DNA of 64,000 nucleotides from an uncultured Gemmataceae bacterium. GTDB lineage: Bacteria; Planctomycetota; Planctomycetia; Gemmatales; Gemmataceae. Made by a program: the position numbers and the translations under genes. The stretch spans positions 269,557-333,556 of the forward strand of contig CAVVFU010000003.1 of assembly GCA_963747575.1 (NCBI GenBank), in the 5' to 3' direction. Positions within the stretch are counted from its first letter, which is position 1, and each line of letters starts with the position of its first letter. The notes under the pieces were generated by a model that saw nothing but the letters and a program-made list of their open reading frames with translations, made no database searches and had not been told where the DNA came from. Shown one piece after another: positions 5,820 to 27,932 of the stretch.

Positions 5820-6530
5820 ATGACCAAACTTCGCAGAATTCACGATCCCGGCGAGAACCGGTTGTTAACAGCTTTGCCGAGGGACGAGCATGACCGCTTG
5901 CTGCCCCATTTGGAAAAGGTGTCCTTGGCCTTGAGGGACATCCTCTACGAGGCGCACGGGCCGATTACGCATGTGTTTTTTCCGCTCAGGGGCGTGGTTT
6001 CCCTGGTCATCATGGATAGCGGCTTCACCCTCGAAGTGGGCATCATCGGCAACGAGGGCCTGGTGGGCACTCCGGCCTTCCTGGGAGCCGACAGCAGCCC
6101 CACCAGGGCCATTGTGCAGATTCCAGGCGAGGCCCTGCGGATGGAGGCCAAGGTCTTTCAGACGGAGATGAAGCGGGGTGGCCCGTTGCATGGCCTGGTC
6201 CAGCGCTACACGCAGTCGATGATTAACCAGATATCGCAGTCCATCGTTTGCAACCACCGGCACTCGGTCGAGAAACGCATGTGCCGTTGGCTGCTGATGA
6301 GCCACAACCGCGTGGGGGCCGACGAGTTCCCGCTCACCCATGAGTTCCTGGCTCAGATGCTTGGCGTGCGCCGTCCCACCGTGACCGCCGTGGCGGGCAC
6401 CCTCCACAAGGCGGGGCTGATTAGGTACCACCGGGGCCGCATTACCGTCCTCGACCGCAAGGGGTTGGAAGCGGCTTCCTGCAAATGCTACGAAGTGGTC
6501 GCAAAGGCGCTGGACCGCTTGCTGGGCTGA
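5820..6530 (+). CDS. Crp/Fnr family transcriptional regulator
   Basis: Same architecture and ~50% identity to the divergent neighbour (HEFLAQMLGVRRPTVTAV). Confidence 0.8.
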   Translation: MTKLRRIHDPGENRLLTALPRDEHDRLLPHLEKVSLALRDILYEAHGPITHVFFPLRGVVSLVIMDSGFTLEVGIIGNEGLVGTPAFLGADSSPTRAIVQIPGEALRMEAKVFQTEMKRGGPLHGLVQRYTQSMINQISQSIVCNHRHSVEKRMCRWLLMSHNRVGADEFPLTHEFLAQMLGVRRPTVTAVAGTLHKAGLIRYHRGRITVLDRKGLEAASCKCYEVVAKALDRLLG

Positions 6531-6555
6531 CGCCGATGGCGAGATTCTCTCGTAC

Positions 6556-6587
6556 TCTCGTTCCCAAACTCCTGTTTGGGAACGAGG
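6556..6587. repeat. palindromic REP-like unit CTCGTTCCCAAACTCCTGTTTGGGAACGAG
   Basis: Perfect inverted repeat GTTCCCAAAC/GTTTGGGAAC around a 5-nt loop; same unit recurs four times at 10211..10383. Confidence 0.6.
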
Positions 6588-6602
6588 GGAGGAAGGAACG
6601 TG

Positions 6603-7154
6603 ATGCGCACCGAAAAAGAAAAAATGCTGGCCGGCGAACTCTACGATCCCCTGGACGCGGAGTTGGTTCAAGCCAGACGGCGTGCCCGAGACTTGTGCCA
6701 GACGCTGAATGCAAGCGGTGAGAAAGACCAGGACGTGCGCCGCCAAATCCTGAAGGAACTTTTCGCCAAGGGTGGGGATACTGTATGGATGCAGCCGCCG
6801 TTCTTTTGCGATTACGGGTCGAATATTTCGTTGGGGGAGCGTGTCTACTTCAACTTCAACTGCGTCATCCTGGACGTGTGCTTGGTGAAGATCGGCAGCT
6901 TCACGCTGTTTGGCCCCGCGGTGCAAATCTACACCGCCGCGCACCCGATGAGCGCCGAGCTACGTCGGCAGCAAGAATTCGGCAAGCCGATCGAAATCGG
7001 CTCCGATGTGTGGGTCGGGGGCGGAGCGATCATTTGTCCCGGAGTGGTCATCGGGTCAAAAACCGTTATCGGGGCTGGCAGCGTGGTCACGAGGGACATC
7101 CCGGAGGGGGTGCTCGCGGCGGGGAATCCGTGCCGGGTCATCAGGGAGATTTGA
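6603..7154 (+). CDS. maltose/galactoside O-acetyltransferase (hexapeptide-repeat family)
   Basis: LacA/Maa-like N-terminus (MLAGELYDP..DLCQTLN) and left-handed beta-helix hexapeptide repeats (IGSDVWVGGGAIICPGVVIGSKTVIGAGSVV). Confidence 0.8.
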   Translation: MRTEKEKMLAGELYDPLDAELVQARRRARDLCQTLNASGEKDQDVRRQILKELFAKGGDTVWMQPPFFCDYGSNISLGERVYFNFNCVILDVCLVKIGSFTLFGPAVQIYTAAHPMSAELRRQQEFGKPIEIGSDVWVGGGAIICPGVVIGSKTVIGAGSVVTRDIPEGVLAAGNPCRVIREI

Positions 7155-9787
7155 TAGTCTGCCTGCGCACCAGCGCTGCTCGCGCGCAGCTGGGTAACCC
7201 GTGCTTCAGGAGCGCCGTTGGCAATTGTGCCGAGCAATTCGAATGCCTCGGCAGTGCCGATCCACTCCAATGCGGCAATCGCCCTTACGCGCTGCAATTG
7301 CTCAGGCGTAAGCTTGGCGTTGTCGGATTTATCGAGCAGCAACTCCGCTCGTTGCCGAGTTTCCAGCGAAGGATTGCCGGCCAGGACATCGCGGAGCCTC
7401 AGTTCAGGCAATTCGCCTAATTTCTCCAGGTCAAGCATGGCTTTTTGCCGTTCCTTGTAAACAGGACTGTCCAAGCTGTTGATCAGCAGCGCAATGCGTT
7501 CACCGTCAACGGGCGGCGCCGGCTTAAGATGCGCACCAATACACTTGATAGCTTCGCTGGGGTGAGCGACCAGCTCGACCATCGATTCCCGAGCTTGAGC
7601 AGTTGGCCCGGTTAATTTGTCCCACCAGTCTTTTACTTGCGTTTCGGCGGGCTTCGAATTGGACGATTTGAAAGCGGGGGGCTGCACGTTATTCCAGACG
7701 ACGAGGGTGTGATCGAGGCTACCTGACGCTAGCAGCTTTCCGTCCGGCGAAAAGGCGACACAGCTGACGGAGTTGATATGGCCGTTGAAGGTACGAATCG
7801 ATTCGCCAGTCACCATGTCCCAAAGCGTGACGCGGCTGTCAATGGAGTGATTGTGAAAGGTCACCGTGTTGCCGTGACCCGCCGCAAGAATGCGGCCGGT
7901 GGGTGAAAACGCCAGGGCATGCACTTTCGTTTTGGGAAATATGTGTAATTCCTGGCCCGTACAACGTTCCCAAACACGAAGGGTGTCGTCGGCATACATC
8001 GTGCCGCGCAAGGTCAGTGACCCGCGGCTGTGGCTGGCTGAGACCAATCGCGCGTCGGAGGAGAGGGCCGCTGTCCAGCAGACGATCTGGTCGCGGTTTT
8101 TCTCGCCGTTGCGCATTTCCACAGTCTGCGACTCCTTGCGCCGGGCATTTTCCACAAGCGCAGCTTCTCGTTGGAAAGATCGTTACGGACTTCGCCATTC
8201 ACGGAGAGCGCGAGTTTTCCGTCGTTGCTGAGGGAAAAGACGGTCCCGTCAGGGCCAAGCGCAGCGGACACGGATTTGGGGATGCCGGTCAGGTTCCACA
8301 CCTGCAGCACGGCGGTACGGCCGCCGACAGTTAGAATCTGCCCATCATTTGAAAAGAGAAGTGCGGCCGCGCCGCCGGCAGGGCCATCAAGGCTAGCGAT
8401 TTCATTGCGGTTGGCCGTGTCCCAAAGGCGAATGACGCCATCCAGACTCGACGAGGCCAGCACTTTGCCGTCGGGAGCAAAGGCGACTGCGGTGATTGCT
8501 GTCTTGTGGCCGTCCAAGCTTTCCAATTGCTTGCCGCTTAATGGGTCCCAAAGTCGCACGGACGCGTCCTTGCCCCCCGACGCCAACACTTTGCCGTCGG
8601 GCCGGAATGCAACAGCAGTCACAGCGTCCATGTGACCGCTATTGCGATTGATCGGCTCCGCGGTGGCGACATTCCAGAGGATAACCGAACCGTCGAGATT
8701 GAATTCTCCAGCCAAAGTCGCCAGTATTTTGCCGTCGGCGGATAGCGCCCCGAAACGCTGTTTAATGTCATGGAGACCCTCGAAACGCCGCAGGCAGCTT
8801 GCCGGTGGCTACATCCCACAAACAGGGCGACTCTCTGCCCTGGAAATCGACCGTGATCAACTCCTTGCTGTCAGGAGTGAACTGCAGGATGTAGCCGCGC
8901 GGGGTGAAGGTGGAGAGTGTTTGACCTGTGCTTAAGCGCTTGACAGCGACTTCTCCAACATTTGGAGCTTGAATGGCAATCGTGTCAAAGTCGGGCGCAT
9001 TCGCAAACCCATATGAATCCATGCTGATTTCATGCAGCATCTTGCCGGTGGTCAGGTCCCAAACACACAAGGAGCCCTCCGTGGCCTCTCGCCCTTTAGC
9101 CTTGGATTGGCTCGACACTGTGGAGGTGACGCTAATCAGACGCTTGCCATCCGCGCTGAATTCGCACCTTCGAAGGCTGCCGCTCTGACCCGACAAAGCG
9201 ATTCGCTCGCCGCCGGTAGCGATTTCCTTGATGTGAATGACTGGATGCCAGGCCGTTTCATCCGAGTTGATCGCGAGCATTTTGCCGTCCGCCGACACGG
9301 CAAAAGCAAAGGAATGGCGGGCTTGAGTCGTAGTGAATACGCGCAGTTTCTTGCCGGATTTCCAATCGTACAGCTCGACGGTGTCACGGCGACCCACATA
9401 AATAGTTTTACCATTGGGCGCAAAAGTCAGGCCATTTAGCTCGAATTCTTGTAAATCCAAGCGACCAACCTCCTTGCCCGTATCCGTTTCCCAAAATCGC
9501 AACGATAGCCCGCCGTTGCCGTTGCCAACGCCGGCCGCGACGCCATCGCCAAACCCAGCCGCGACTAATGTTTTTCCGTCCGGTGAAAACGCAGCGGCAA
9601 TCACGCCGCCCTGGTGATGAAAACGGACCGAACCCATCCGGGCGACGGCTCCTTCAGGCAGCAGGTCGCCGTATTGATCGACCGGCCGTGCCTGGTCCGT
9701 TGCTACTGGTCCTGCATTAGGCGTTGACGGAAACGTGGGAAGCAGAGGCAAGCACACCGCCATCAAAAACACGTATCGCCGCGGCAT
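6929..9787 (-). CDS. large secreted WD40-repeat beta-propeller protein, interrupted by at least two frameshifts (ORF pieces 8768..9787, 8014..8715, 6929..8155)
   Basis: Signal peptide MPRRYVFLMAVCLPLLP; WD40 repeats continue across three consecutive ORFs in different frames (..RLWD, ..LWDT, ..VWNN); 3' tail overlaps the convergent acetyltransferase by ~225 nt, suggesting a further frame error near 7150-7250. Confidence 0.5.
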
Positions 9788-10804: not shown

Positions 10805-11252
10805 ATGAGCGAGGATTATCCACCCACCGTCATTGTTCGGCATTCCAGGGAGAATCCGCAAGTGCTCGATTTTGCCGTTGCGCGGCCGACCCGGCATCGT
10901 CATTCTCGGCTATCCGGTCAAGAAGATGCCGGACTTGACCAATTATGTGCGATTGGCCGCCGATGGGCCGGAGCTATCGCCGGCGGATGCTGCCAGCGGC
11001 CTGCTGCTGCTCGACGGCAGCTGGCGCTGGGCTGGCGCCATGACACGCCACTTCGAAAACGTGACGCCGCGCTCGCTGCACGGCTACCAGACGGCCTATC
11101 CGCGCGTCTCCAAGCAGGGAACCGACCCCGACAACGGCTTGGCGTCGGTCGAGGCGCTTTACGTCGCTTATCGCATTCTCGGCCGGCCGGTGGAGGGGTT
11201 GCTCGATCACTACCGATGGCGCGAGGAGTTCTTGCGCCAATGTCAGGCTTGA
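10805..11252 (+). CDS. DTW-domain protein (tRNA aminocarboxypropyltransferase-like), probable frameshift near 10860-10890
   Basis: LLLLDGSWRWAGAMTRHF = DTW-type DxSW motif, C-terminal LASVEALYVAYRILG; N-terminal VIVRHSRENPQ is in a different frame. Confidence 0.45.
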
Positions 11253-11378
11253 AAGCCCGACCTACGGTTGACAAATCCCACGGAATCCGTATCAATTCGT
11301 TTACGATCCAGCGATTGAACATGGATAAGTTCCTTTACGGTCATGGGCGGCCAATGCCATCCTGGGGGACCGTGCCTG

Positions 11379-12209
11379 ATGAGTGTGTCGAACAACGCTG
11401 AATGCCGAGGCGTCCTGTCTCGAGTTTACGCTCTTTATCGCGATTATTTTGATCTCGCCGAAAAAAAGCGGCGCTGGCGGCTCCGCGAGGACATTCCCTG
11501 GCATCAGTGCAACCCCGGCGTCACGCTCGCGCTCGCCGATGTCGTGCAGACTCTTTGCGGCATCGAAATGTATTTGCCCGATTACCTCGGCAAGCTTATC
11601 CCGCAGGTGCGCGCCAGCCGTGGCCTGACGTGGTTCCTGGCCACCTGGGGCTACGAGGAATCGAAACACTCCCTGGCCCTGGGCGATTGGCTGCTGCAAT
11701 CCGGCCAGCGCACCGAGGAAGAGATGGCCGACCTCGAGGCCTTTGTGTTTTCCAAGGCGTGGCGTCTGCCCAATGACAGCGCCCTGGGCATGCTTTGCCG
11801 CATGATGCTCCAGGAACGGACCGCCTGGCTGACGTACAAAAACCTGCGGACTCTCGTGGCCGGCACCGATCCCGCCCTGGATCGCACGCTTTACTTCCTG
11901 GGGATCGACGAATGCGCTCATTACGATTTTTGCCGCAGGCTCGCCCTGATTTACCTTGAAGATGACCGCGAGGAGACGCTGGAGCAGCTGCGAATGGCCT
12001 CCAGCGAATTTGCCATGCCGGCCCTGCGCCTGTTCGCGGACTCGGACCAGCGCGAACGGCAGCTCAAGGAATTGCGGCTGTTCGACGAGGATATTTTTTA
12101 CTTCCAGGTTTTCGAGCCGACGCTGGCCGATCTTGGCCTGACCAGGAAAGACCTTCGACAGCGTCAAGACAAGCGTGAAATCATGGCCGTGAGTTACTCG
12201 CCGACATGA
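11379..12209 (+). CDS. soluble acyl-ACP desaturase (plant-type diiron FA_desaturase_2 family)
   Basis: Motifs LPDYL, WGYEESKH (EExxH), LQERTAWLTYKN, LGIDECAHYDF (DExxH) match the stearoyl-ACP desaturase / DesA1-like pattern; 8 nt upstream of KS-like gene. Confidence 0.8.
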   Translation: MSVSNNAECRGVLSRVYALYRDYFDLAEKKRRWRLREDIPWHQCNPGVTLALADVVQTLCGIEMYLPDYLGKLIPQVRASRGLTWFLATWGYEESKHSLALGDWLLQSGQRTEEEMADLEAFVFSKAWRLPNDSALGMLCRMMLQERTAWLTYKNLRTLVAGTDPALDRTLYFLGIDECAHYDFCRRLALIYLEDDREETLEQLRMASSEFAMPALRLFADSDQRERQLKELRLFDEDIFYFQVFEPTLADLGLTRKDLRQRQDKREIMAVSYSPT

Positions 12210-12216
12210 GGCGACC

Positions 12217-13497
12217 ATGCATACTACCCAGCGACGCACTGTCATCACCGGTTGCGGAGTCGTGGCTCCGCCCGGCAGCGATTTGCCCGCATTCTGGGAC
12301 AGCTTGATCGCTCAGCGGAGCTGTGTCGCTCCCATTCAGGCCTACGACGTATCAACTCTTCCGGTGCGTTTCGGCGGCGAGGTCCGCGATTTCGACGCCA
12401 GGCTGTACATCGACAAGAAAGAGCGCAAACGGCTGGCGATCATGCCCCGGCCGCTGCAATTGGGAGCGGCCGCGGCGTTTTTGGCATTGCAGGACGCGGC
12501 GCTGGACAAAACCCAGCGCGATCCCGAGCGCTTTGGTGTGATCGTCGGCGGCGGCACCGTTCCGGCTGATCAGATCGGCCTCGCTCAGGCTGCCCAGCTC
12601 AGCACGGCCGGCCGGGGCAGGATCGACATGAAGAAATGGGGCTCGGTTGGCATTCCCACAGTGCCGCCGATGTGGATGCTTCATTTCGTGCCCAACATGC
12701 TCGCTTGCCATGTGTCGATCCTGCACGACGCGTGCGGGCCGGTGAACACGATGACGCAGACCGAGGCCGGCGGACTTTTGGCGCTGGGCGAAGCCTGTCG
12801 GATGATTCGCCGGGACAGGGCCGACGTCATTCTTGTGGGCGGGGGCGACAGCCGCATCAACGGCATCAGTGGCGTTCGCCAATGCTTGTTTGCACCGTTG
12901 TCGCGGCGCAACGAAAATCCGGCGGAAGCTTGCAAGCCTTTTGATCGCCGGCGCGATGGATCAGTCCTGGGCGAAGGCGGGGGATTCCTTGTTATCGAGG
13001 AACTGCAGCACGCGCGGCGGCGGGGCGCTCGGATTTGGGCAGAGGTCATTGGTTTTGGCGCGGGCCTCGATCCTGGCCGGAGCGGCGAAGGGCTAGGGCG
13101 GACAATTCGCCTGGCCATGACCGGCGCGAGCATCGCGGCTTCGGAGCTCGATCACGTCAACGCTCACGGACTCAGCACTCGCGAGGACGACGCCTGGGAA
13201 GCGCGCGGCTTGCGGCGCGGCGTCGGCGAGACAACATTGCCGGTCCCGGTCATGGCCGTCAAGAGTTATATGGGGAACCTTGGCAGCAGCAGCGGGTTGG
13301 TTGAGATGATGGCCAGTTTGCTCGCGCTTGACAAGGGCACCGTGCCGGGAACGCTCAATTACCGCCAGTACGATCCGGATTGTCCAGTCCATGTTCCGCG
13401 TGAGCCATGGGCGGCTGCCAAACGCTGTTTTTTGAAGGTCAGTTTGACCGAGTTGGGGCAGTGTGCGGCAGTGGTTTGCCGGCGGTGGGAGGGTTGA
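12217..13497 (+). CDS. beta-ketoacyl synthase-like protein lacking the catalytic Cys (chain-length-factor / KS-beta-like)
   Basis: Full KAS I/II fold, but at the active-site position GPVNTMTQTEAGGLLAL has Thr/Gln/Glu instead of TACxSG Cys; HGLST retained; KSxxGH is KSYMGNLG (His lost), as in type II PKS CLFs. Confidence 0.8.
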   Translation: MHTTQRRTVITGCGVVAPPGSDLPAFWDSLIAQRSCVAPIQAYDVSTLPVRFGGEVRDFDARLYIDKKERKRLAIMPRPLQLGAAAAFLALQDAALDKTQRDPERFGVIVGGGTVPADQIGLAQAAQLSTAGRGRIDMKKWGSVGIPTVPPMWMLHFVPNMLACHVSILHDACGPVNTMTQTEAGGLLALGEACRMIRRDRADVILVGGGDSRINGISGVRQCLFAPLSRRNENPAEACKPFDRRRDGSVLGEGGGFLVIEELQHARRRGARIWAEVIGFGAGLDPGRSGEGLGRTIRLAMTGASIAASELDHVNAHGLSTREDDAWEARGLRRGVGETTLPVPVMAVKSYMGNLGSSSGLVEMMASLLALDKGTVPGTLNYRQYDPDCPVHVPREPWAAAKRCFLKVSLTELGQCAAVVCRRWEG

Positions 13498-13504
13498 ACT
13501 CGGA

Positions 13505-13633
13505 GACGGCACATGGAGTGTGCCTACTGCGAAAAAAGACGGCACACGGAGTGTGCCTACTGCGAAAAAAGACGGCACACGGAGTGTGCCTACTGCGAAA
13601 AAAGACGGCACACGGAGTGTGCCTACTACTAAC
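13505..13633. repeat. tandem array of four 33-bp units GACGGCACACGGAGTGTGCCTACTGCGAAAAAA, each with a GGCACAC-GGA-GTGTGCC palindrome
   Basis: Direct tandem copies with no spacers, lying between KS-like stop (13497) and KAS start (13634); first unit has ACATGG variant, last unit truncated; related copies at 21276..21340, 27168..27182, 27905..27932. Confidence 0.8.
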
Positions 13634-14922
13634 ATGAATCGTCGCATCGTTATTACTGGGATGGGAGTTATTACGCCGCTGGGCGACAGCGTGGAAGGTC
13701 TGTTCGCGGCGCAGATCGCGGGGCGGAGCGGCGTCGGACCGATCACGCGCTTTGACGCCAGCACTTTTCCGACGACGTTTGCCGCCGAGGTGCGCAGATT
13801 TCGACCTGGCCCGCTACGTGCCGCGCTGCGAGCGCTGGCGTGACGCTGCCCTGAACAGCCAGTTCGCCGCCGCAGCCGCGCAGCTGGCACTGCGCCATGC
13901 CGGACTGCTTTTCGACACGCGCGTCGACCGCAACCGTTTCGGCGTCTACCTTGGGACCGGCGAGGCATTTACGAATTTTCATGGCCTGATGTCGATGCTG
14001 GTCGAAAGCTATCGCCCGCAAGAACAGGCCATAGACTATGCGGCTTTCGGCGCCGCGGGCCTCGAAATGCTCCAGGCAGGTTATGAGCTGGAGTTCGAGC
14101 TGCATCGCCCGGCCGGCCACCTCGGCGCTCACTTCGAATTGCGCGGCCCGAATGAAAGCTGCCTGACGGCATGCGCGGCCGGCAGCCAGGCGGTCGGCGA
14201 GGCCATGGAGCTGATCCGCGATGATGCCGCCGATATGATGCTGGCCGGCGGTTCGCACAGCATGGTTTATCCCCTGGGCGTTATGGGTTTCAACCTGCTG
14301 ACGGCGCTGTCGACCCGCAACGACGACCCGCAGCGCGCCTCGCGGCCGTTCGACCTGCACCGCGACGGCTTCGTCGTCGGCGAAGGCGCCGGCATGCTGG
14401 TGCTGGAGGAATTGGAGCATGCCCGACGGCGCGGCGCCGAGATTCACGCGGAGCTGACCGGTTATGGCACCAGTGCCGACGCCTATCGCATCACCGATTG
14501 CCATCCCGAAGGCCGCGGCGCCATCTCCTGCATGCGGGCAGCAATCGCCGACGCCGGCCTGGCGCCGGAGGACATCGGCTACATCAACGCCCACGGCACC
14601 AGCACCCAGGTCAACGACCGGGTCGAGACGCTGGCCATCAAGCAGGTTTTCGGCGACCATGCCGGCTAGGCTGCCGATCAGCAGCAGCAAGAGCATGCTG
14701 GGCCATCTGATCGCCGCGGCCGGCGCCGTGGAACTGATCATCAGCGTGCTGGCGATGCAGCGCGGCATTTTGCCGCCGACGATCAATTACGAAGAGCCCG
14801 ATCCCGCTTGCGATCTGGATTACATCCCCAACAAAGCTCGCGAGGCACGGGTGCGGCATGTGCTCAGCAACAGCTTCGGCTTTGGCGGGCAGAATGTGTC
14901 GCTGGTCGCATCGGGCATTTGA
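13634..14922 (+). CDS. beta-ketoacyl-ACP synthase (KAS II/FabF-like, intact Cys-His-His), reading frame broken twice (~13800 and ~14650)
   Basis: [17 protein letters not shown]; active site [14 protein letters not shown]; [13 protein letters not shown]; [15 protein letters not shown]; protein continuous only when ORFs 13463..13843, 13752..14669 and 14464..14922 are joined. Confidence 0.75.
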
Positions 14923-14949
14923 GTCGACGTGCGCCGTTTGGGAGCGGGT

Positions 14950-15030
14950 GTAGCGTAAGGAGAGGAGAAAGATCAAGAGTAGGACTAAGAGTAGGAAGAG
15001 GATTAGGAGGAAGATCAAGAGCAGGATGCG
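14950..15030. repeat. purine-rich (GA) low-complexity tract with short direct repeats (AAGATCAAGAG, TAAGAGTAGGA)
   Basis: aggagaggagaaagatcaagagtaggactaagagtaggaagaggattaggaggaagatcaagagcagg between convergent KAS and desaturase genes; locally lower GC. Confidence 0.4.
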
Positions 15031-15094
15031 TCGGACGTGAATCTGTCCTTCTCGTACTCTTACTCGTTTTCGGATTCGCACGGAGCGCAGGGCA

Positions 15095-15919
15095 TCACGT
15101 CGCCAGCGATTTCTTCACCTTCGGCCCGCGCAGCTCGCTTTTGGTGATACCCAGCACTTCCATGAAATGGGTATAGACATCCCGGAAGAAGATCTCCTCG
15201 TTGAAGATCTCCAGCTCGCGGATGCGGGCGATGCGTTTGGCGTTTTCGTCGAGCAAATCGTGAATGGCCGGCATCTGAAAATGGTTGAGCACGGGCCGCA
15301 TGGCAGCAATGGCGGCATCACGGTCCACTTCCATGAACAGCTCCATGAACGACTTGAACAGGCCGTAATGGGCGGCCTCGTCGACCGTCACCAGGTTCAG
15401 CAATTTCTCCAGAGCCGGGTCGCCGCCCTTGGCCTGAACGCGGGCGCGGAGATTGCGATAGTTCAGGAAGGTCGCATGCTCCTGCACCATGGCGTAGGCG
15501 AGCATGCCCAGGGAGCTGTCCTGCGGCAAGTTCCATTCGCGCTCGAAGACCTTCTCCTCCAGGTCGGCCATGTATTCCTCACTGCGATGGCCCGAACGCA
15601 GCAGCCAGTCGTTGAGCACCAGGGAATGCTTCGATTCCTCATAGCCCCAGTTGGCGTAAAACCACGACCGGCCTTTGCTGTTGCGAACCAGCGGCAGCAC
15701 CTTGGAGACATAATCGGGCAGATAAAGCTCGACGGCGCAAAAGGTCTCGACCACGTCGGCGATGGCGGGATCGAGATTGGGATTGCACTCGTTCCAGGGG
15801 ATGTCCTCGCTGATGCTCCAGCGTCGTTTCCGCTCGGCGGTGTCGAAGAAATCGCGGTAGAGCCGCCAAAGCTTGGCTTCGAGTTGTGGACTTTCGAGCG
15901 GTTCGAATCCTTGCATCAA
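15095..15919 (-). CDS. soluble acyl-ACP desaturase, paralog of 11379..12209
   Basis: Same motif set (LPDYV, WGYEESKH, VQEHATFLNYRN, VDEAAHYGLF); ~55% identity to the first copy; convergent with the KAS gene. Confidence 0.8.
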   Translation of the reverse strand: MMQGFEPLESPQLEAKLWRLYRDFFDTAERKRRWSISEDIPWNECNPNLDPAIADVVETFCAVELYLPDYVSKVLPLVRNSKGRSWFYANWGYEESKHSLVLNDWLLRSGHRSEEYMADLEEKVFEREWNLPQDSSLGMLAYAMVQEHATFLNYRNLRARVQAKGGDPALEKLLNLVTVDEAAHYGLFKSFMELFMEVDRDAAIAAMRPVLNHFQMPAIHDLLDENAKRIARIRELEIFNEEIFFRDVYTHFMEVLGITKSELRGPKVKKSLAT

Positions 15920-16303
15920 GGGATCCTAGCTGAGCCGGCAAGGCACGAAAACACGCGCACCGGCGGGGATTGCCGAACTAGGGGCTGGGTGGTAGGGATA
16001 TTATCGGTTTTTGAAATGATTTGGCAAGTGGTTGTGGGGCGGTAGTGGAGCAATCCTGCCAAATGGGTATTGAATAGGTATTCATCCCTTGGATCGGCGA
16101 TTTTTTCGCGTGCTGCTTCGTTTCCTGCTTTTGGCGGCGTTCTTCGCCTCGATTATTTTCCAGAAAGTTTCATGGGGAATACCTTCTCCCGCTCGAAACC
16201 GTTTCCGAGCTGCTTCCAGAATCGTTTGCAGCCTTGCCGACGGGCCCATGTGCTGGCGTTCCAGGAAGGTGTCATCGCACACCGCGAGTTACTCCGGTTT
16301 TGC

Positions 16304-19494: not shown

Positions 19495-21093
19495 TCAAAA
19501 TGAGGACAAAGCTGCCATCCCTATGCAATCTGCTCCCTCGGCGGCGGCTCCGTCGGCCGGATTCGATCCCCGTGCGCTGGCGCATGGCGATGCGGTTGAT
19601 GACCTGCAGAAACGCCAGGGCGCTGGCCTCGATGATGTCGGTGCTCGCCGCCGGCCTCGGAAGGTCTTGCCGTTGTACTCGACCTCGACGTGGGCCTCGC
19701 CCTGGGCGTCCTCGCCGATCGTGACGCTGCGCACCAGATAGTCGCGCACCTCGACGTCGATGCCGGTGATCCGCTCGATGGTCTTGAAGACGGCGTCGAC
19801 CGGGCCATCGCCGATGGCTGGCTTCGCGGTGGATCGTGCCGTCGTTGTGCCAGAGACAGACGGCCGCCGAGGGAATCGTGCCCGAGCCGGCGTTGCAGGT
19901 GACGGCCTCCAGCGTCCACATGGCCGGGCCGCTGTGGATCTGGTCCTCGGCCAGGGCTTCGATGTCGGCGTCGTAGATCGTCTTCTTGCGATCGGCCAGC
20001 GCCTTGAAGCCTCGAAGACGCGTCTGCAGCTGCTCGTCGTCGAGGTGATAGCCCAGCTCGCGGATGCGCTGCCGCAGGGCGTGCCGGCCGCTGTGCTTGC
20101 CCAGCACCAGCTCGGTCTGCTGCAGGCCGACGTCCTCGGGCTGCATGATTTCGTAGGTCGTGCGTTCCTTGAGCATGCCGTCCTGATGGATGCCGGCTTC
20201 GTGGGCGAAGGCGTTCTGGCCGACGATGGCCTTGTTGCGCTGCACCTGCATGCCGGTGATGTGCGACACCAGCCGGCTGGTCGGGCAGAGCCGCTGGGTG
20301 TTGATGCTCGTGGTGCAGGTTGAAGTAATCGGCGCGGGTCCTGCAGGGCCATGACGATTTCTTCCAGGGCGCAGTTGCCGGCCCGCTCGCCGATGCCGTT
20401 GATGGTGCACTCGACCTGGCGGGCCCCTTCTTGCACGGCGGCCAGGCTGTTGGCCACGGCCAGGCCCAGGTCGTTGTGGCAGTGGACGCTGATGACGGCC
20501 TTGTCGATGTTGCGGCACGTTCTTCTTGAGATGGCGAATGGCCGCCGCGTACTGCTCCGGCATGGCGTAGCCGACCGTGTCGGGAATGTTGACCGTGGTG
20601 GCGCCGGCCTCGATGGCGCGCTCGACGACCTCGGCGAGGAAATCGAGCTCGGTGCGGGCGGCGTCCTCGGGCGAGAACTCGACGTCGTCGACAATAGTCC
20701 TTGGCCCGCTTGACGCCCTCGACGGCCCGGCGGATGATCTCCTCCTTGGTCCATGTTGAGCTTGAACTCGCGATGGATGGCGCTGGTGGCCAGGAAGACG
20801 TGGATGCGCGGCCGGTCGGCGTCCTTCGAGCGCCTCCCCGGCGCGGTCGATGTCGTCGGCGTTGCAGCGGGCCAGGCCGCAGATGACCGGGCCGTGCGAC
20901 CTCGCGGGCGATGGCCTGCACCGCCTCGAAATCGCCCGGCGAGGCGATGGGGAAGCCGGCCTCGATGACGTCGACGCCAAGGTCCTTGAGCGCGTGGGCG
21001 ATCTCCAGCTTCTCGGCGCAGGTTCATGCTGGCGCCGGGCGATTGCTCGCCGTCGCGGAGCGTGGTGTCGAAGATGATCAGGCGGTCGTCCAT
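19495..21093 (-). CDS. leuA: 2-isopropylmalate synthase, coding sequence spread over three reading frames
   Basis: [23 protein letters not shown]; [30 protein letters not shown]; LeuA C-terminal regulatory domain ([21 protein letters not shown]); conserved segments alternate between ORFs 19495..21093, 19521..20921 and 19295..20980. Confidence 0.8.
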
Positions 21094-21275: not shown

Positions 21276-21340
21276 TAGTAGTAGGCACAGTCCGTGTGCC
21301 GTTTGCGAAAACAACGGCACACGGACTGTGCCTACTACTA
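21276..21340. repeat. inverted pair of TAGTAGGCACAGTCCGTGTGCC units (same family as the 13505 tandem array) separated by 15 bp
   Basis: tagtagtaggcacagtccgtgtgcc gtttgcgaaaacaac ggcacacggactgtgcctactacta; intergenic. Confidence 0.6.
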
Positions 21341-27904: not shown

Positions 27905-27932
27905 AACGGCACACGGAGTGTGCCTACTACTA
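27905..27932. repeat. single copy AAACGGCACACGGAGTGTGCCTACTACTA of the 33-bp repeat family, just downstream of ligA stop
   Basis: Identical palindrome to units at 13538..13633; partial inverted arm GTAGGCACACTCCG at 27168..27182 on the other side of the low-GC islet. Confidence 0.5.

Follow-up and report, generated by a model that had tools for sequence, protein, structure and literature searches.

A ketosynthase-fold protein with an acidic residue in place of its catalytic cysteine, probably the inactive partner of an adjacent FabF-like ketosynthase in Gemmataceae and other Planctomycetota

A 64,000-nt stretch of DNA from an uncultured Gemmataceae bacterium (contig CAVVFU010000003.1 of assembly GCA_963747575.1, forward-strand positions 269,557 to 333,556; hereafter the window) encodes a full-length ketosynthase (KS)-fold protein with a dead active site, here called KS'. 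It belongs to a planctomycete family that carries aspartate or glutamate where a KS has its catalytic cysteine, and its gene is followed directly by that of a FabF-like KS, here called KS-alpha. Judged from the sequences and gene order described below, KS' is probably the non-catalytic subunit of a heterodimeric KS formed with KS-alpha, and would resemble a chain length factor (CLF) in function. Inactive KS partners decide the chain made by an iterative synthase, and each new family of them is therefore a handle on product control. The family described here is large, being found in at least 126 species-representative genomes that are mostly Gemmatales, and is annotated only as generic beta-ketoacyl-ACP synthase (ACP, acyl carrier protein).

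The KS' open reading frame (ORF) is unbroken over 426 codons plus a TGA stop, and both KS domains are matched by Pfam (PF00109, 5e-34; PF02801, 2e-19). In NCBIfam the fabF model ranks at the top, yet the score of 290.1 bits lies below the TIGR03150 equivalog cutoff of 493.75. Residues were mapped through HMMER alignments to solved FabF structures and through a MAFFT alignment containing Escherichia coli FabF, and the two agree on the following positions:

12217..13497, + strand: KS', 426-aa protein of KS fold, full length, active site dead
12763..12765, + strand: Glu183 codon GAG, in the column of the E. coli FabF nucleophile Cys163, motif TQT-E-AGG
13165-13167, + strand: His317 codon, in NAHGLST, in the column of E. 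coli FabF His303
13261-13263, + strand: Lys349 codon, in the column of E. coli FabF Lys335
13276..13278, + strand: Asn354 codon AAC, in KSYMGNLG, in the column of E. coli FabF His340
13447..13464, + strand: T-E-L-G-Q-C, in place of the G-F-G-G-x-N oxyanion/gating loop

On these alignments KS' is a catalytically degenerate two-domain ketosynthase whose Cys-His-His triad is broken to Glu/His/Asn. A first-pass annotation of the window had already reported both the replacement of the active-site cysteine in TQTEAGG and the loss of the histidine of the KSxxGH motif, and both observations hold. A cysteine at the nucleophile position in a correct alignment, which it had named as a refutation, is not seen; no alternative alignment brings one to the nucleophile elbow, and nearby Cys173 falls in a variable column ahead of the GP turn. 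The FabF loop NSFGFGGxN reads VSLTELGQC in KS', with Glu412 at the Phe400 gate position; in addition, the six-residue Thr270 loop is deleted and Thr305 of FabF is replaced by leucine. Cys416 (13462-13464, within GQC-AA) takes the place of the asparagine in FabF GGxN and is almost invariant in the KS' family.

The altered active site recurs across relatives. A protein search over 5.8 billion proteins listed at least 120 KS' homologues at 53-76% identity, which come from Planctomycetes and Gemmataceae and carry generic names only (KAS II or KS family). Across 121 KS' sequences, the nucleophile column holds Asp in 95, Glu in 21, Ser in 3, Gly in 2 and Cys in none, while the second-His column holds Asn in 99. 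The first histidine, which the first-pass annotation had described as kept, is indeed present in KS' itself as His317, but in this column 75 of the same sequences have His and 35 have Gln, so that the residue is not conserved in the family. A profile search over 1.84 billion representatives retrieved 74 single-domain distant relatives at 31-44% identity, one of them encoded in the complete Planctomycetales bacterium 10988 genome; Glu or Asp stands at the nucleophile column in 53 of the 74, typically together with His, Lys and Asn at the other three sites. An acidic residue in this column therefore marks a KS' family that spans the phylum Planctomycetota. Besides Cys416, the residues Gln415 and Trp141/Trp153 are strongly conserved in it, and the mean column identity is 66% over 50 members. 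The ratio of nonsynonymous to synonymous substitution rates (dN/dS) of KS' is 0.157 between the window and the related locus L001 (related loci carry L numbers throughout) and 0.178 between L025 and L034, which indicates purifying selection. A scan of species-representative genomes gave the at least 126 relatives mentioned above; the best 80 of these, in which synteny was mapped by tblastn, are nearly all labelled Planctomycetota, mostly Gemmatales/Gemmataceae metagenome-assembled genomes (MAGs), and the few with other taxon labels are probably mis-assigned. Literature searches found no description of this planctomycete Asp/Glu-type family. KS-inactive-KS fusions of 800-880 aa met in the representative search belong to other families and are not Rosetta-stone fusions of KS'.

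In the window, KS' lies between a desaturase-like gene and the gene of its putative partner, with a second desaturase-like gene beyond:

11379..12209, + strand: Des1, soluble acyl-ACP-desaturase-like di-iron protein, 276 aa from the likely ATG at 11379
13634..14922, + strand: KS-alpha, FabF-like KS with its Cys-His-Lys-His set intact and with the Phe400 gate and GFGG present
15095..15916, - strand: Des2, another di-iron protein of acyl-ACP-desaturase-like type, 273 aa, transcribed convergently to the operon (PF03405, 8e-19)

A KS follows directly 3' of KS' in 80 of the 83 loci with enough sequence (96%). In all 69 adjacent partner KSs the Cys, His, Lys and His residues, Phe400, GFGG and also the Thr270 loop are kept. 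The same 69 have Glu in place of FabF Ile108, which is a back-gate residue (PMC9006962); by inference, an invariant glutamate at this position would disfavour a canonical long-chain pocket inside one subunit. In neighbour-joining (NJ) trees the KS' clade is recovered with support of 96/100 for the Gemmatales members and 99/100 when distant representatives are included, the partner KS clade with 100/100, and the sub-clades found at loci of the window's type (type B, described below) mirror each other in the two trees. Taken together, the degenerate KS', its conserved pairing and the mirrored sub-clades make a non-catalytic, CLF-like partner role the best reading.

The first-pass annotation had named the immediately downstream beta-ketoacyl-ACP synthase as the partner. 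That choice agrees with its intact Cys-His-His triad and with the conserved adjacency; what had gone unnoticed is that two frameshifts break the window copy. Two surplus bases, an A at 13796 and another near 14664-14667, spread its coding sequence over three frames, and dropping both gives a 428-aa protein that is colinear with the intact 434-aa L001 orthologue. The restored KS-alpha scores 404 bits against Thermus thermophilus FabF and falls right at the cutoff of the NCBIfam fabF model (493.9 versus 493.75). Contig L003, which shares 97% identity with the window, does not have the surplus A at 13796 and shows different indels of its own in KS-alpha, KS' and Des1, which points to consensus errors across the assembly; window and L003 are separated by 119 gap columns in 17 kb. 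The contig names of L003 are of long-read style, and L004, L011 and L014, with similar names and neighbouring ENA accessions, are similarly fragmented. The frameshifts are most likely long-read assembly (consensus) errors, or else KS-alpha may be a strain-specific pseudogene, and other apparent pseudogenes in the window should be treated cautiously given the indel-prone assembly. Divergence between the window and L003 is also a mosaic, with roughly 3-15% mismatches at 6500-7500, 14000-16000 and 19500-21000 and about 0% elsewhere; one divergent block spans the 3' half of KS-alpha and the entire Des2 gene. This pattern suggests strain recombination or a chimeric consensus of mixed strains.

Two kinds of locus carry the pair. 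The commoner one, type A (about 65 loci), is an eight-gene cluster of a FabA/FabZ-like dehydratase (DH), a FabG-like ketoreductase (KR), a 131-aa ACP, a second DH, KS', KS, an alpha/beta hydrolase and the adenylating enzyme GH3, with no enoyl reductase (ER); L002/L005 5474-13786 are exemplars, and the cluster recurs in distant relatives from deeper planctomycete lineages. In type B, the type of the window, an acyl-ACP-desaturase-like (Des) gene is followed by KS' and then KS. This arrangement is complete in the window and in L001, L003, L004, L011, L025, L034, L044, L065 and L072, while only Des and KS' are seen in L013, whose contig stops there, and in L018. The Des gene stands directly 5' of KS' in 11 type B loci, and L020, L060 and L073 have the KS'-KS pair without it. 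Both types are present together in ten MAGs. In one type B sub-clade an extended short-chain dehydrogenase/reductase (SDR) follows the active KS (L011 12658-13772, L020 12418-13676, L025 4717-5813, L034 12806-13854); it matches Epimerase, 3Beta_HSD and NAD_binding_4 (fatty-acyl-reductase-like) and is absent from the window locus.

The desaturase-like genes of the window appear intact in their metal-binding residues. The mechanically called Des1 ORF starts at 11343, and its stop lies 7 nt ahead of the KS' start. Des1 matches Pfam PF03405 (FA_desaturase_2) at 26.8 bits against a cutoff of 22.7 and shows both ExxH motifs (EESKH and DECAH) and both extra Glu ligands. When Des2 is aligned with the castor delta-9 stearoyl-ACP desaturase, EENRH/EESKH, QERATF/QEHATF and DEKRH/DEAAH are matched. 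The two proteins are 47% identical, and in each the full set of six di-iron ligands of the stearoyl-ACP desaturase family is present. The other neighbours include WD40, sigma factor and similar genes.

The fold of KS' is FabF-like. A single-chain AlphaFold2 model (predicted local distance difference test score 85.4, predicted template modelling score 0.85) is of good overall confidence and poorly defined at residues 113-119, 154-160 and 175-180, which form the interface/pocket region. In a Foldseek search against the PDB, almost all of the top 50 matches are FabF-type KAS II enzymes at a template modelling (TM) score of 0.84-0.88 and 29-34% identity; the actinorhodin KS-alpha takes rank 39, and these 50 include no CLF chain. 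KS' and KS-alpha each have a helix-loop-helix about 15 residues longer than that of FabF, in the dimer-interface/pocket region. In the window pair its net charge is -6 in KS-alpha and +2 in KS', an asymmetry that resembles the one of the anammox pair amxFabF2/amxFabFmut, in which electrostatic asymmetry drives heterodimerisation (bioRxiv 10.64898/2026.05.19.726425).

From these features a division of labour can be proposed. The downstream KS would hold the sole working Cys-His-His site of the pair, load the acyl chain and catalyse decarboxylative Claisen condensation with malonyl-ACP. KS' would provide the second half of the dimer, and its remodelled helix-loop-helix may give the acyl tunnel its shape at the interface, or shut it there, and thereby set a preference for substrate or chain length; it may also contribute to ACP docking, as a CLF does. 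The pair would work together with two soluble di-iron enzymes of acyl-ACP-desaturase-like type, one encoded in the same orientation and one convergently; the presence of these genes beside it suggests that acyl-ACP desaturation and elongation are linked. The module probably elongates and desaturates acyl-ACP made by other fatty-acid synthesis enzymes.

Inactive KS partners are of a kind already known from actinorhodin, Iga11/12, ApeO/ApeC, AmcF/AmcG and amxFabF; what sets the KS' family apart is the Asp/Glu signature, the glutamate back gate of the partner and the link to a desaturase-like gene. The closest described precedent is the amxFabFmut/amxFabF2 heterodimer of the anammox bacteria Kuenenia, Brocadia and Scalindua, reported in a May 2026 preprint, which decarboxylates malonyl-ACP and yields acetoacetyl-ACP (bioRxiv 10.64898/2026.05.19.726425); its structure is probably PDB 9s5h/9s5i. 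Both systems come from the same phylum and have the gene of an inactive FabF paralogue directly upstream of that of an active one. KS' also shares with amxFabFmut a full length, a structure closest to FabF and a remodelled helix-loop-helix interface. By bit score KS' is nevertheless not an orthologue, since the two 9s5h chains score 153-160, below the 220 of ordinary FabFs. The nucleophile position is Val or Thr in amxFabFmut but Asp or Glu in the KS' family, and the anammox genes lie in a ladderane cluster (amxACP, amxFabZ, radical SAM, phytoene-dehydrogenase-like), whereas the window has two acyl-ACP-desaturase-like genes and none of those.

The KS-alpha/CLF pairs of aromatic type II polyketide synthases (PKSs), such as that of actinorhodin (PDB 1tqy), likewise have a dead KS-fold subunit encoded beside an active KS, and defining the acyl tunnel at the dimer interface is the role expected of both KS' and CLF. 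The hallmark of a CLF, however, is Gln at the Cys position, and its gene lies downstream of KS-alpha (PMC9006962, PMC3691225), often with translational coupling; KS' has Glu there, the gene order is reversed with the inactive subunit upstream and the active one downstream, and neither an aromatase nor a cyclase nor an ACP is encoded at the window locus. The first-pass annotation had seen in KS' the substitution pattern of type II PKS KS-beta/CLF subunits, which does not bear comparison with a bona fide CLF: the four positions read Glu/His/Lys/Asn in KS' and Gln/Asp/Lys/Arg in the Streptomyces-plasmid CLF. An NJ tree joins KS' to this CLF in just 1 of 100 bootstraps, a weak negative in view of the unreliable deep NJ topology, and KS' scores 128 bits against the actinorhodin CLF as opposed to 175 against the actinorhodin KS-alpha and 220 against FabF. 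Its label of chain-length-factor-like thus survives as a description of the likely role and fails as a statement of clade membership; on this weak negative evidence KS' appears to lie outside the CLF clade of aromatic type II PKSs and closest to FabF. Canonical FabF (KAS II) gives the best matches of KS' in both sequence and structure (30-37% identity, TM 0.84-0.88), but FabF, a homodimer, has two active sites, and KS' lacks its triad and gating loops.

A third group of comparable systems is highly reducing and type II PKS-like (Iga11/Iga12, ApeO/ApeC and the Streptomyces plasmid cluster L092). The type A cluster is made up of the same parts as these polyene systems, namely two DHs, KR, ACP, KS', KS, a hydrolase and adenylating GH3, without ER, and in its composition it also resembles aryl-polyene systems. 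The window locus, unlike them, lacks ACP, KR and DH and has soluble desaturase-like genes; the parts that it lacks are found in type A, at about 65 of the 80 related loci. ApeC is half-size, whereas KS' is full length. The acidic pocket residue of the active partner KS, the Glu at Ile108, recalls Asp113 of Iga11 and may be its equivalent in position.

The deeper placement of KS' changes with the outgroups used. With three FabF outgroups only, KS' and its partner were sister clades in 99 of 100 bootstraps; after a real KS-alpha/CLF pair, the Streptomyces highly reducing-type cluster and distant representatives were added, the grouping fell to 0 of 100 and the inactive subunits attracted one another. 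Because the sister grouping vanished, an origin of the pair by local duplication is not claimed. The 15-residue extension of the helix-loop-helix was also considered as a synapomorphy of the pair and rejected, as it occurs in the Cys-to-Ala KS of L092 and in the active KS P0138. The latter (L093 2018-3307, from the Gemmatales MAG La1_concoct.277) is a KS that stands alone, keeps its Cys-His-Lys-His set intact and resembles KS' in the motif of its helix-loop-helix (PLWLLKYLPNM...). With identities of 41% to KS' and 47% to the partner KS, it may represent either a Gemmatales housekeeping FabF or an active relative of the KS' lineage.

Several observations sit uneasily with a CLF-like partner role. 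Among the close loci, L018, L036 and L049 have KS' without an adjacent KS, as do the distant orphans L087 (9001-10272, Planctomycetales bacterium 10988, CP043547) and L090 (7001-8284); the latter two carry the Glu/Asp-His-Lys-Asn signature, and a strictly obligate adjacent-partner model cannot account for them. Charge complementarity of the interface helices is weak family-wide, KS' being the more positive member in just 44 of the 69 pairs. Genes for ACP, KR and DH are absent from the window locus, and the partner's frame is broken twice there; if these indels are real, the pair is non-functional in this strain. Finally, a passive partner leaves the near-universal acidic residue at the old nucleophile position unexplained.

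This last point bears on two other accounts of KS', both of which give the protein an activity of its own. In one, which we regard as decidedly unlikely, KS' is partly active as a malonyl-ACP decarboxylase or chain-initiation factor that supplies the acetyl primer to its partner, the role that has been put forward for the glutamine in CLF and KSQ domains. KS' does keep His317 and Lys349, the nucleophile column is held as Asp/Glu instead of drifting randomly, and the anammox heterodimer decarboxylates malonyl-ACP and yields acetoacetyl-ACP, although the anammox paper does not ascribe this step to the inactive subunit. The second histidine and the oxyanion/gating loop are lost, however, with Phe400 changed to Glu, Gln or Asp and GFGG destroyed, and the first histidine is Gln in 35 of 121 members. 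A carboxylate at the nucleophile site should moreover repel the malonyl carboxylate, not mimic the acyl-enzyme as Gln does. In the other account, KS' acts independently of the adjacent KS, as a homodimer or with a housekeeping FabF, in a different role, for example to sequester or regulate acyl-ACP or to carry out a new reaction with Asp/Glu as base or nucleophile. The orphan members L087, L090 and L018 would fit this idea, as would the strong conservation of the acidic residue and of Cys416, Gln415 and Trp141/Trp153, and the stand-alone P0138 shows a KS'-like helix-loop-helix in an active enzyme whose MAG also bears a type A cluster. We nonetheless hold it to be unlikely: in 96% of the close loci a KS is retained immediately downstream, in many cases after a short gap or with an overlap, the gene trees of KS' and KS-alpha mirror each other, and we know of no precedent for carboxylate catalysis at the nucleophile elbow of the thiolase fold.

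That KS' might instead be a decaying pseudogene, or its substitutions sequencing artefacts, has a negligible chance of being right. The indel-prone assembly and the frameshifted neighbour invite the suspicion, and the first-pass annotation had itself named an artefact as what would undo its claim. The ORF is nevertheless intact and of the same length as its homologues, dN/dS is about 0.16, and the base substitutions are common to over 120 independent sequences. Among 83 members of the family, each taken from an independent assembly, the nucleophile column is Asp in 73 and Glu in 10. Family-wide conservation and dN/dS thus rule this possibility out.

The FabF label now attached to genes of the KS' family misleads annotation. 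The anammox heterodimer suggests that KS/CLF-like pairs of FabF-like proteins recur in planctomycete lipid biosynthesis, and the KS' family supplies candidate genes for unexplained lipids of Gemmataceae. C26-C32 (omega-1)-hydroxy very-long-chain fatty acids and omega-5 monoenes have been reported in Telmatocola, Zavarzinella and Frigoriglobus (PMC3327967, PMC7534041). As a speculative lead, and one that we would call a long shot, Asp/Glu-type KS'/KS pairs might be dedicated elongation modules for such lipids, with the window module leading to monounsaturated C26-C32 (omega-1)-hydroxy very-long-chain fatty acids or to omega-5 monoenes, KS' serving as the chain-length ruler and its carboxylate having a mechanistic role.

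The spacer between KS' and KS-alpha measures 136 nt in the window, against a family median of 66 nt and an overlap of 4 nt in L001. It is filled by a repeat:

13504..13627, no strand assigned: tandem repeat, 33-bp unit in 3.8 copies, with the hairpin GGCACACGGAGTGTGCC in each unit

The same hairpin occurs at 21284-21300, 21316-21332 and 27908-27924, giving 7 matches where 0.01 are expected, and the 33-bp repeat is a dispersed REP-like element that lies outside the enzyme system. Translated, it produces GTRSVPT-type peptide repeats in spurious ORFs. Upstream of Des1, the ORF at 10833-11252 (+ strand) has weak matches to the DTW domain and DUF367, both under cutoff, and is probably unrelated to the KS module.

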